Of a stretch of DNA of 43,308 nucleotides, positions 25,596 through 28,149 are shown in pieces. The DNA is from Candidatus Aenigmatarchaeota archaeon (GTDB lineage: Archaea; Aenigmatarchaeota; Aenigmatarchaeia; QMZP01; QMZT01): the NCBI GenBank assembly GCA_041489155.1, contig JBGPQP010000010.1:1-43308 (forward strand), written 5' to 3'. Made by a program: the position numbers and the translations under genes. The number at the start of each line of letters is the position of its first letter. The stretch's first letter is position 1. A model generated the notes under the pieces. It did no database searches. It was given only the letters and a program-made list of their open reading frames with translations, and was not told the DNA's origin.

Positions 25596-25994
25596 TTATT
25601 TTGACAGCCTTTCATCCACGAAGGTCTCCATCTCCTCTTTCGTCACGAAGCTCGACTTCAGCGGGTCGTATATGGAAACGAGCTGTTTGAGCTCATCGAC
25701 GTTCGTTTTCGTCGCGACCTGCTTGAGCTGGTTGATGATCTCCTTGTACGTGATCTCGATTTTCTCCACCCTTTCCTCGAGGGATGAGATTTTCATGTCG
25801 CGCTCAAGGAGCGATTTCTGCACGTTCTTGTTGTAGGAAACTAGGTTCTGCTCTATGGAGTTTATCCTGGAGTCGATGGTCTGCGTCCTCTGCTCTATGA
25901 CGCGGAGGCGCTGGACGTTCTCGTTCACGCGGTTTATAAGGTCGACCATTATCCTTTCCTGCTTGTCGGCCGGCGCCTTCCCGAAAACTGCCAT
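25596..25994 (-). CDS. Hypothetical coiled-coil protein
   Basis: Heptad-rich 132-aa ORF co-oriented with the downstream coiled-coil gene. Confidence 0.75.
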   Translation of the reverse strand: MAVFGKAPADKQERIMVDLINRVNENVQRLRVIEQRTQTIDSRINSIEQNLVSYNKNVQKSLLERDMKISSLEERVEKIEITYKEIINQLKQVATKTNVDELKQLVSIYDPLKSSFVTKEEMETFVDERLSK

Positions 25995-26054
25995 ATTTAA
26001 GATTATGGAAACTTGCTAATAAATCATTTTCAGGGCACGTGAAAAAGAAAAAGA

Positions 26055-26211
26055 TGCGGGAGCAGGGATTCGAACCCTGGAAGCTACTAAAGCACTAGGC
26101 ATTTCCATGGCGTTTCAGCCAATACCTGAACTTGGCCATACCTAAACTTGGCCATACCAGTCGAAGCGAACTTAGGTATTCTAGCCCCTTTGGCCGCTTG
26201 GGTACCCCCGC
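26055..26211 (-). tRNA. tRNA-Leu with introns at 30/31 and 37/38 and two alternative anticodon exons (TAG at 26141-26147; CAG at 26125-26131)
   Basis: Acceptor GCGGGGG/CTCCCGC-A73, T-arm CAGGG-TTCGAAT-CCCTG, long variable arm. 5' exon 26211-26181 and 3' exon 26100-26055; either micro-exon gives an 84-nt tRNA with a CTAGG/CCTAG anticodon stem. Confidence 0.88.
26122..26158. repeat. 16-bp tandem repeat (2 copies plus a partial) inside tRNA-Leu
   Basis: Minus strand GGTATGGCCAAGTTTA GGTATGGCCAAGTTCA GGTAT; the only difference is the anticodon wobble base. Confidence 0.95.
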
Positions 26212-27289: not shown

Positions 27290-27425
27290 TGCCCCGGCCG
27301 GGATTCGGACCCGGGTCACCGGCTTTCTTCGTGAAGTCATTGCTCCGCAAAGCGAAACTCTTACCTTTCGAGCTTCCGAAAAGCACCCGAAAGGCCGGTA
27401 TCCTTGGCCTCTAGACTACCGGGGC
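27290..27425 (-). tRNA. tRNA-Glu(TTC) with a 63-nt canonical 37/38 intron (27325-27387)
   Basis: GCCCCGG/CCGGGGC-A; CCGGC-CT-TTC-G|intron|A-GCCGG; BHB CTTT/GAAG with a GTG/CAC helix. Confidence 0.92.
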
Positions 27426-27924: not shown

Positions 27925-27989
27925 AGTTACACATTATTGTTCTGTCATGTCTTATAAGATTTTTTGCTGAAGCTTTTTAAAAGCTTCCA

Positions 27990-28061
27990 TGGGCCGGGAG
28001 GGAATTGAACCCTCGACCTTCGCCGTGTGAGGGCGACGTCATACCACTAGACCACCAGCCC
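27990..28061 (-). tRNA. tRNA-Val(CAC)
   Basis: GGGCTGG/CCGGCCC-A; TCGCC-CT-CAC-AC-GGCGA; TTCAATT T-loop. Confidence 0.95.
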
Positions 28062-28063
28062 AG

Positions 28064-28149
28064 CGCTGGGAGCAGGATTCGAACCTGCGCAGGCTTTCGC
28101 CCATCCGCTTTCGAGGCGGGCGCCTTGAACCGGGCTCGGCCATCCCAGC
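28064..28149 (-). tRNA. tRNA-Ser(CGA)
   Basis: GCTGGGA/TCCCAGC-G73; CCCGC-CT-CGA-AA-GCGGA; long variable arm GGGC-GAAA-GCCT. Confidence 0.95.

Follow-up and report, generated by a model that had tools for sequence, protein, structure and literature searches.

Alternative splicing counts as a hallmark of mRNA in eukaryotes. A BHB motif, as a rule, comprises a 4-bp central helix and two 3-nt bulges on opposite strands, each of which is cut after its second base; along either strand a helix, the central helix, the bulge and a further helix follow one another. Several described systems come close to the locus reported here. According to the accessible text of the sources consulted, the tri-split tRNA-Gly of Caldivirga maquilingensis (Fujishima et al. 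2009, via PMC4390854 and PMC4033280) is encoded by separate genes with complementary leaders, whose separate transcripts are joined in trans at BHB-type motifs by an endonuclease and a ligase, and its isoacceptors arise from shared 5' and 3' parts combined with alternative anticodon-loop pieces. The split tRNA-Glu of Nanoarchaeum equitans is likewise trans-spliced from separate loci, with one 3' half and two 5' halves, so that whole halves are exchanged around a shared part that serves two isoacceptors differing at the wobble base (Randau et al. 2005, as relayed in the accessible portion of PMC4033280). Multiple-intron tRNA genes with non-canonical introns are described from Thermoproteales, ARMAN and other DPANN, each giving one product as far as the accessible text of these papers goes (PMC4033280, PMC3239211). 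Lastly, the available text on mirror mitochondrial tRNAs describes two tRNAs read off opposite strands of one locus (bioRxiv 10.1101/2025.11.12.688142).

The tRNA-Leu gene described here resembles the C. maquilingensis tRNA-Gly in that isoacceptors would be built from shared 5' and 3' parts and alternative anticodon-loop pieces, with joining at BHB-type motifs by endonuclease and ligase predicted alike; unlike there, both pieces lie within one 157-nt gene, between its exons, so that the choice would fall to alternative folding of one transcript. As in N. equitans, a shared part would serve two isoacceptors that differ at the wobble base, whereas what is exchanged here is a 7-nt cassette in cis. 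Each path amounts to a two-intron tRNA of the multiple-intron kind (30/31 and 37/38), with a 7-nt micro-exon and an epsilon2-type endonuclease; here, however, there are two mutually exclusive sets of splice signals. With the mirror mitochondrial tRNAs the gene shares the principle of one locus giving two tRNAs in a reduced genome, whereas those tRNAs use two strands and no splicing, carry two amino acids and belong to another domain of life. Cis alternative splicing of an archaeal tRNA was not found in the full-text literature, in the parts open to us (subscription journals lie largely outside that coverage), nor did the searched literature yield a printed case of exon choice giving two products from one precursor, be it a tRNA or another substrate of the archaeal endonuclease. 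The original prediction had named a precedent in Methanopyrus tRNA-Glu; this could not be traced, as the accessible text of PMC4033280 contains no such case and that of PMC4090602 never names Methanopyrus. We consider it likely, with a probability of roughly 0.78, that both tRNA-Leu(UAG) and tRNA-Leu(CAG) are made from this one gene.

The window, i.e. the whole 43,308-nt stretch of DNA that was analysed, from a tiny uncultured archaeon of the DPANN lineage Candidatus Aenigmatarchaeota, carries the gene on its minus strand at 26211-26055 (157 nt), by direct reading and with identical ends in ARAGORN run with introns (-i). Its frame is of the Leu type: GCGGGGG/CTCCCGC forms the acceptor stem, the discriminator is A, the variable arm is long and the T-arm is intact. 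The gene does not encode CCA; upstream of it is an A/T-rich stretch resembling a promoter, and a T-run follows downstream. All internal features are on the same strand. The directly read 5' exon (26181-26211, 31 nt, tRNA positions 1-30, G30 at 26181) contains the acceptor 5' strand, the D-arm, G26 and C27-G30 of the anticodon stem. It is followed by the intron segment I1 (26148-26180, 33 nt), delimited by pairing analysis, which begins A-ATACC and ends GGTAT-GGCC-AA. Next come cassette exon A, GTTTAGG (26141-26147), which supplies positions 31-37 with the anticodon UAG; the 9-nt spacer I2, TATGGCCAA (26132-26140); and cassette exon B, GTTCAGG (26125-26131), which supplies the same positions with the anticodon CAG. 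The last intron segment, I3 (26101-26124, 24 nt, T-ATTGGC...GCCAT-GGAA-AT), again placed by pairing analysis, leads into the directly read 3' exon (26055-26100, 46 nt, G38 at 26100), which holds G38, the anticodon-stem 3' strand CCTAG, the long variable arm, the T-arm, the acceptor 3' strand and discriminator A. All coordinates originally given for the gene, the exon ends and both cassettes proved exact on re-reading. Tandem Repeats Finder (TRF) reports a single, unstranded array at 26122-26158, a 16-nt repeat in 2.3 copies with 95% matches, and this repeat corresponds to both cassettes plus their BHB halves. Among the 36 tRNA loci of the genome intersected with TRF, only this gene carries a strong tandem repeat; an Ala gene has one weak repeat of 11 nt. 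With all its parts within 157 contiguous bases, the gene is neither a split nor a tri-split tRNA, and its orthologues likewise hold all parts at one contiguous locus.

BHB motifs are present at both splice sites, and each cassette has its own BHB 3' half, as mutually exclusive exons with complete signals would. At the 30/31 site the central strand is G25-U28, the bulge AG|A and the inner strand AUACC, and for either cassette the central helix is GGCU/GGCC, of three Watson-Crick pairs and one G.U, with bulges AG|A and AA|G. Two 3' halves fit this one site, GGUAU-GGCC-AA|G before cassette A and (UUUAGG)UAU-GGCC-AA|G before cassette B. For A, the GGCC of I1 forms the central helix with G25-U28, and AA|G is the 3' bulge; for B, the 3' half is the GGCC-AA of the spacer, and the inner helix continues into cassette A to reach 9 bp. 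The 37/38 site is common to both: U32-A35 of either cassette pairs with the GGAA of I3 (bulges GG|U and AU|G), and in this genome the resulting helix, UUYA/GGAA, has one A.G mismatch among its 4 bp whichever cassette is used. For cassette A, the AUGGC(CA) of the spacer and I3 also form the inner helix of the second BHB, which reaches 7 bp in the orthologue L007. Because the spacer's GGCC is either the central strand for B or part of this inner helix for A, the two roles of the spacer are mutually exclusive. Outer and inner helices are partly weak, which makes the motifs of the relaxed type; the outer helix of the first BHB consists of G.U, G.U and A-U only. Every pairing claimed at the outset was recovered, namely GGCT/GGCC, ATACC/GGTAT, ATACCTAAG/TTTAGGTAT, ATGGC/GCCAT, and TTYA/GGAA with its one A.G mismatch. 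The account of the 30/31 central helix needs one correction: the pairing itself stands, but G25 also pairs with C10 in the D-stem, so that the first BHB competes with the cloverleaf.

We propose that a single transcription unit gives a pre-tRNA-Leu with two mutually exclusive 7-nt anticodon exons. In fold A, G25-U28 would pair with the GGCC before cassette A, U32-A35 of A with GGAA, and the spacer with the last intron segment. In fold B, the partner of G25-U28 would instead be the spacer's GGCC, cassette A would be hidden by pairing with the beginning of the first intron segment, and U32-A35 of B would pair with GGAA. Either fold would offer two BHB motifs to the splicing endonuclease, and cutting and ligation would yield tRNA-Leu(UAG), with 33 + 40 nt removed, or tRNA-Leu(CAG), with 49 + 24 nt removed; mixed cuts might also lead to dead-end products. 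What the data show directly is the anatomy of the sequence, how it is conserved and covaries, that the census contains no separate genes and that the enzyme is encoded. From the invariance of both cassettes and from the gene census we infer that both mature tRNAs exist; cleavage and ligation of either fold in the cell, the order of the steps and the product ratio are likewise inferred. Constrained to the two folds, this gene gives -21.1 and -20.7 kcal/mol for the anticodon region and -44.2 and -43.8 kcal/mol for the whole precursor. The gap between the constrained folds is at most 3 kcal/mol in 17 of the 21 orthologues, and in the remaining four it is 3.3 to 10 kcal/mol. The unconstrained minimum-energy fold is neither A nor B (-54.7 versus about -44 kcal/mol). 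We think it probable that Aenigmatarchaeota use programmed cis alternative BHB splicing of this kind, the balance between UAG and CAG product being determined by how stable the two folds are relative to each other.

In silico, excision restores a canonical cloverleaf on both paths. As originally predicted, removing 33 + 40 nt or 49 + 24 nt leaves in either case an 84-nt Leu tRNA, which ARAGORN names tRNA-Leu(tag) and tRNA-Leu(cag), respectively, and the predicted spliced form B is identical to the natural intronless Leu(CAG) of the relative G039 at 75 of 84 bases. On the unspliced locus, ARAGORN with default settings reports no tRNA, Rfam returns nothing at gathering or E-value thresholds, and ARAGORN -i finds the correct ends and miscalls the gene as Thr(agt). 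For annotation this means that tRNA finders miss such genes or give them one anticodon, so that Leu-CAG or Leu-UAG would falsely appear absent from Aenigmatarchaeota genomes.

Could the duplication be an assembly or strain artefact, or the gene a decaying pseudogene? Assembly errors can create short tandem repeats, and in the Logan contigs run X1 has no contig over 26112-26159. However, contigs from two other runs, X2 (record 12, 26070-26210) and X3 (record 17, 25800-26182), cross the repeat without a difference (the best-matching runs may include the source sample), and the assembly artefact that the original prediction had named as a danger is not borne out. The same structure stands in 20 other family genomes, other forms occur across the phylum, all exons are intact, and the census turned up no further gene for TAG or CAG, all of which leaves an artefact or a pseudogene scarcely credible. 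A joint in X2 that skips 26099-26181 was considered as a possible intron-less copy; the contig matches the 5' exon only, with one difference, and we read it as another Leu gene.

Searching 41 relatives with the gene gave full-length matches whose loci were then read. The layout E1|I1|GTTTAGG|9 nt|GTTCAGG|I3|E3 recurs in 21 of 23 family genomes and nine of ten genera, in 21 distinct sequences, and the duplication on which the original prediction turned is kept by relatives of this genome. Both cassettes are invariant in 21/21 orthologues. The spacer is always 9 nt long and follows the pattern YRYGGCNRA (21/21), while I1 spans 22-33 nt and I3 16-67 nt, their interiors unrelated. In none of the 21 orthologues does the central helix of either cassette contain more than one mismatch, and the helix between I1 GGCC and G25-U28 has 4/4 pairs in 20 of them. 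Two-sided changes are seen in the inner helix of cassette A, from A-T to G-C in two sequences and from C-G to T-A in three, and the inner helix of cassette B has two compensatory pairs in the orthologue L006. Among the two family genomes lacking this layout, the dual gene was not found in G018, which is 77% complete, and G007 has a different duplication, AAAGGGGCTAGGCTTAGG ... AAAGGGGCTAGGTTCAGG, again with TAG followed by CAG, for whose first copy manual placement gave no convincing BHB for removal.

The intron strand that faces cassette A is variable (CCTAAG, CCTAAAC, TCTAAAC, CCGAAAA, CCTACAC, CCTGCAC), and in the orthologue L012 cassette A is hardly paired with it, with nothing beyond GG; since the partner strand varies and the cassette never does, cassette A must be constrained by more than pairing with the intron. 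This weighs against a reading in which tRNA-Leu(CAG) is the only product and cassette A a mere inner-helix strand of the 30/31 BHB. The helix between the start of the intron and cassette A plus spacer is indeed long (9-10 bp), and the compensatory pairs of L006 would suit that reading, but cassette A also has a GGCC-AA half and a helix with the last intron segment of its own, and CUA, which makes up 4.5% of Leu codons (875 occurrences in the 455 ORFs that have 300 codons or more), would be left with no reader. We hold it to be very improbable.

The converse reading, in which only tRNA-Leu(UAG) is made, deserves more attention, even if we think it unlikely. Here, cassette B and its BHB half would be part of the intron and conserved as such, perhaps as a structural element within the long 37/38 intron, and the UAG tRNA would read CUG by wobble. 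The shared 3' helix lends it something: the counterpart of GGAA is TGAA or TGAG in most relatives, with 4/4 pairs to both cassettes, and in 5/21 orthologues it is TAAR, which is perfect for cassette A and leaves a C.A mismatch with cassette B, as in many genes of other families. Against this, cassette B sits in a loop in fold A, yet it is as invariant as cassette A.

The gene complement bears on the same question. A census with the pattern GCGGGGGTNNCCNRR, the Leu 5' end, gave 84 matches in the 23 family genomes, all of which were read: 21 are the dual gene, one is the G007 variant of it, 16 are Leu(AAG), 20 Leu(TAA) and 19 Leu(CAA), and seven are not tRNAs. No separate Leu-TAG or Leu-CAG gene is among these 84 matches from 23 family genomes, in a census that combines a 5' pattern with BLAST, would let a gene with a different acceptor stem escape and covers genomes that are 77-95% complete. 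The absence of separate genes that the original prediction foresaw holds in this genome and in 22 family relatives. G004, where a 1.105-Mb contig is nearly the whole genome, has exactly TAA, CAA, AAG and the dual gene, and when the whole gene served as BLAST query, G000 (this genome), G002, G003 and G004 gave no additional Leu-like exons. A naive scan of this genome for TAG or CAG anticodon hairpins, intron-bearing or not, returned 197 matches, none tRNA-like among the matches listed, the filter being a weak one. Relatives with no dual gene do carry separate genes: G027 and G039 (family f6) have TAG, CAG and AAG genes, and G184 (f22) has GAG, CAG, TAG and CAA genes. A CAG gene was also found in G103, and a TAG gene in G125 and G150.

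If both products are made, four genes would cover five Leu anticodons in this genome. The absence of a CAG gene is not by itself proof that cassette B is used, because a UAG tRNA could in principle read CUG, and CNN tRNAs are absent from some archaea, according to the accessible text of PMC6000648. On the other hand, CUG is the commonest Leu codon here (31.7% of Leu codons in the same 455 ORFs), and the genome retains other CNN tRNAs, namely Val CAC and Ser CGA (ARAGORN default) and Ala CGC, Arg CCU and Leu CAA (ARAGORN -i calls plus manual reading), which would sit poorly with a UAG tRNA as the only product of the gene.

Beyond the family, the exact family pattern was found in 21 stretches among 185,579 species genomes, 20 archaeal and one bacterial; the bacterial match (L050, labelled Parvularculaceae bacterium) is a chance 16-nt tandem repeat, GGCTAGGCCCAGTTYA, with no tRNA. 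A broad pattern, GYTTAGRN{0,27}KGYBARGYTCAGR, which replaced a looser one with many chance matches, occurs in 66 of 371 phylum genomes versus five matches of its reversed-pattern control. It is present in families f1, f2, f4, f5, f7, f8, f10-f13, f27, f28, f31, f32, f37 and f40, and was not found in f3, f6, f18, f21 and f22 among these 371 genomes. Twenty further loci were fetched, 17 of them Leu genes and three chance matches in other DNA, and three layouts can be told apart. Layout 1 is that of the gene described here. In layout 2 no intron separates the 5' exon from cassette A, and a spacer with GCGAA|G at its end leads on to cassette B. Such a locus can be read in two ways, as a TAG gene whose intron is canonical or as a CAG gene with an intron of 15-30 nt at 30/31; the first of these speaks for tRNA-Leu(UAG) as the only product. 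Layout 3 is a larger duplication, like that of G007. Three genomes have a third cassette-like copy (L111 and L112, from G214 and G219, and also G220 by pattern), arranged in a row as GTTTAGG-CGAA-GCTTAGG-(..)CGAA-GCTCAGA, in which the GGCG splice helix of a cassette takes its GG from the cassette before it.

We parsed 17 non-family genes, i.e. the further Leu loci minus L113 and plus L102, the latter read by eye. The second-BHB C.A mismatch for cassette B recurs in 10 of these 17. The 25-28 strand and the strand before cassette B covary, as CGCA/TGCG, CGCT/GGCG or AGCG, and GGCT/GGCC, a pairing that is relevant only if the 30/31 site is cut there, which argues against a gene restricted to tRNA-Leu(UAG). 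So do the loop forms of cassette B, CTCAGA+A and TTCAGG+G, which are those of stand-alone CAG tRNAs; TTCAGGG is also the loop of the stand-alone Leu(CAG) of G039 (L023) and of G103 (L137). Both single-product readings fall short because the unused cassette is strictly conserved and its splice half covaries. The comparative evidence supports the reading of one locus with two cassette exons and competing BHB folds that would supply two isoacceptors, much as first predicted. Elsewhere in the phylum, G029 (f5, 95% complete) has AAG, TAA and CAA genes plus the dual gene. In G273 and G271 (f32), the only paralogues that BLAST recovers in addition to the dual gene are CAA and GAG; in f27 it gives a CAA gene only in G233 and a GAG gene only in G211, where one further match was left unread. 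On sequence grounds, the TAG+CAG dual arrangement is phylum-wide and has several architectures.

Is the host equipped to splice such a gene? Its assembly (1.13 Mb in 39 contigs, 89.65% complete) encodes, on C7, an EndA of 396 aa, with two tRNA_int_endo domains and an N-terminal domain, which matches PDB 4FZ2, ARMAN-2 epsilon2 EndA, over its full length (E 6e-110). The accessible text of PMC3488258 describes 4FZ2 as the epsilon2 enzyme of ARMAN-2, and that of PMC3239211 reports that an epsilon2-type endonuclease cuts strict and relaxed motifs in vitro. By analogy, the genome would encode an endonuclease fit for non-canonical and relaxed motifs.

Should this hold, the gene would be the first alternatively spliced tRNA, and its processing the first alternative splicing by the archaeal protein-only machinery, with dual splicing retained and rebuilt in several architectures across the phylum. 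It would also assign a clear role to tRNA introns, a matter long debated: apart from guiding a methylation, their bona fide role is unclear, in the accessible text of PMC3488258. Furthermore, it would link cis intron-containing tRNAs to trans tri-split tRNAs. The system is small as well, consisting of a 157-nt RNA, one endonuclease and one ligase.

The sister Leu genes merit a description of their own. The Leu(CAA) gene (G000:C6:10228-10386, minus strand) has a 30/31 intron and a variable-arm intron, and 30/31 introns are found as well in Leu(AAG) genes from relatives in the family. The first intron of this Leu(CAA) gene contains TTCAAGA, an anticodon-loop look-alike that adjoins the real CTCAAGA; it is not a second anticodon, folds into a hairpin with TCTTGAA and recurs in many relatives. 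The Leu(AAG) gene of this genome (G000:C4:36503-36680, plus strand) lies outside the window. It is closely paralogous to the dual gene, and the exons of the two are nearly identical, their 5' exons (C4:36503-36533 in the paralogue) differing at one base, i.e. 97% identity over 31 nt. The paralogue has a canonical 37/38 intron, with the central helix CTAA/TTAG, and a T-loop intron. A stretch of its intron, RGCCYG, covaries with positions 28-33 between G000 and G004. The possibility of a hidden GAG micro-exon, which would make the gene Leu-GAG and not AAG, was rejected, as relatives have an uninterrupted CTAAGGA loop.

For pyrimidine-ending Leu codons, tRNA-Leu(AAG), with A at the wobble base, is found in f1, f5 and f6, and GAG in f22, f27 and f32; CUC makes up 25.5% of Leu codons (455 ORFs of at least 300 codons). 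The Leu(AAG) loop is often the uninterrupted CTAAGGA, and relatives with this tRNA are L025, L053, L058-L060, L064, L065, L068, L070, L071, L073-L076, L079, L094, L097 and L100. The accessible text of PMC3239211 reports A34 Leu and Pro tRNAs from ARMAN-4 and -5. A TadA-like deaminase for Leu(AAG) was sought in G000, and the only CDA-fold protein there resembles dCMP deaminase rather than TadA.

Other tRNA genes of the genome have peculiarities too. A tRNA-Ala gene (G000:C11:17335-17434, minus strand) has an 11-nt tandem duplication, TGGTGAAGGCA / TGGTGGAGGCC, directly 3' of the anticodon; the duplicated stretch is the anticodon-stem 3' strand plus the variable region, and it has the appearance of an intron that arose through local duplication. 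Within the window, tRNA-Ser(CGA) and tRNA-Val(CAC) adjoin each other, 0-2 bases apart, at 27989-28149 on the minus strand. Within 800 bases of this pair lie Val(GAC) and then an intron-bearing tRNA at 27290-27425, which by manual reading is Glu(UUC) with a 63-nt intron and which ARAGORN -i miscalls as a stop-codon tRNA.
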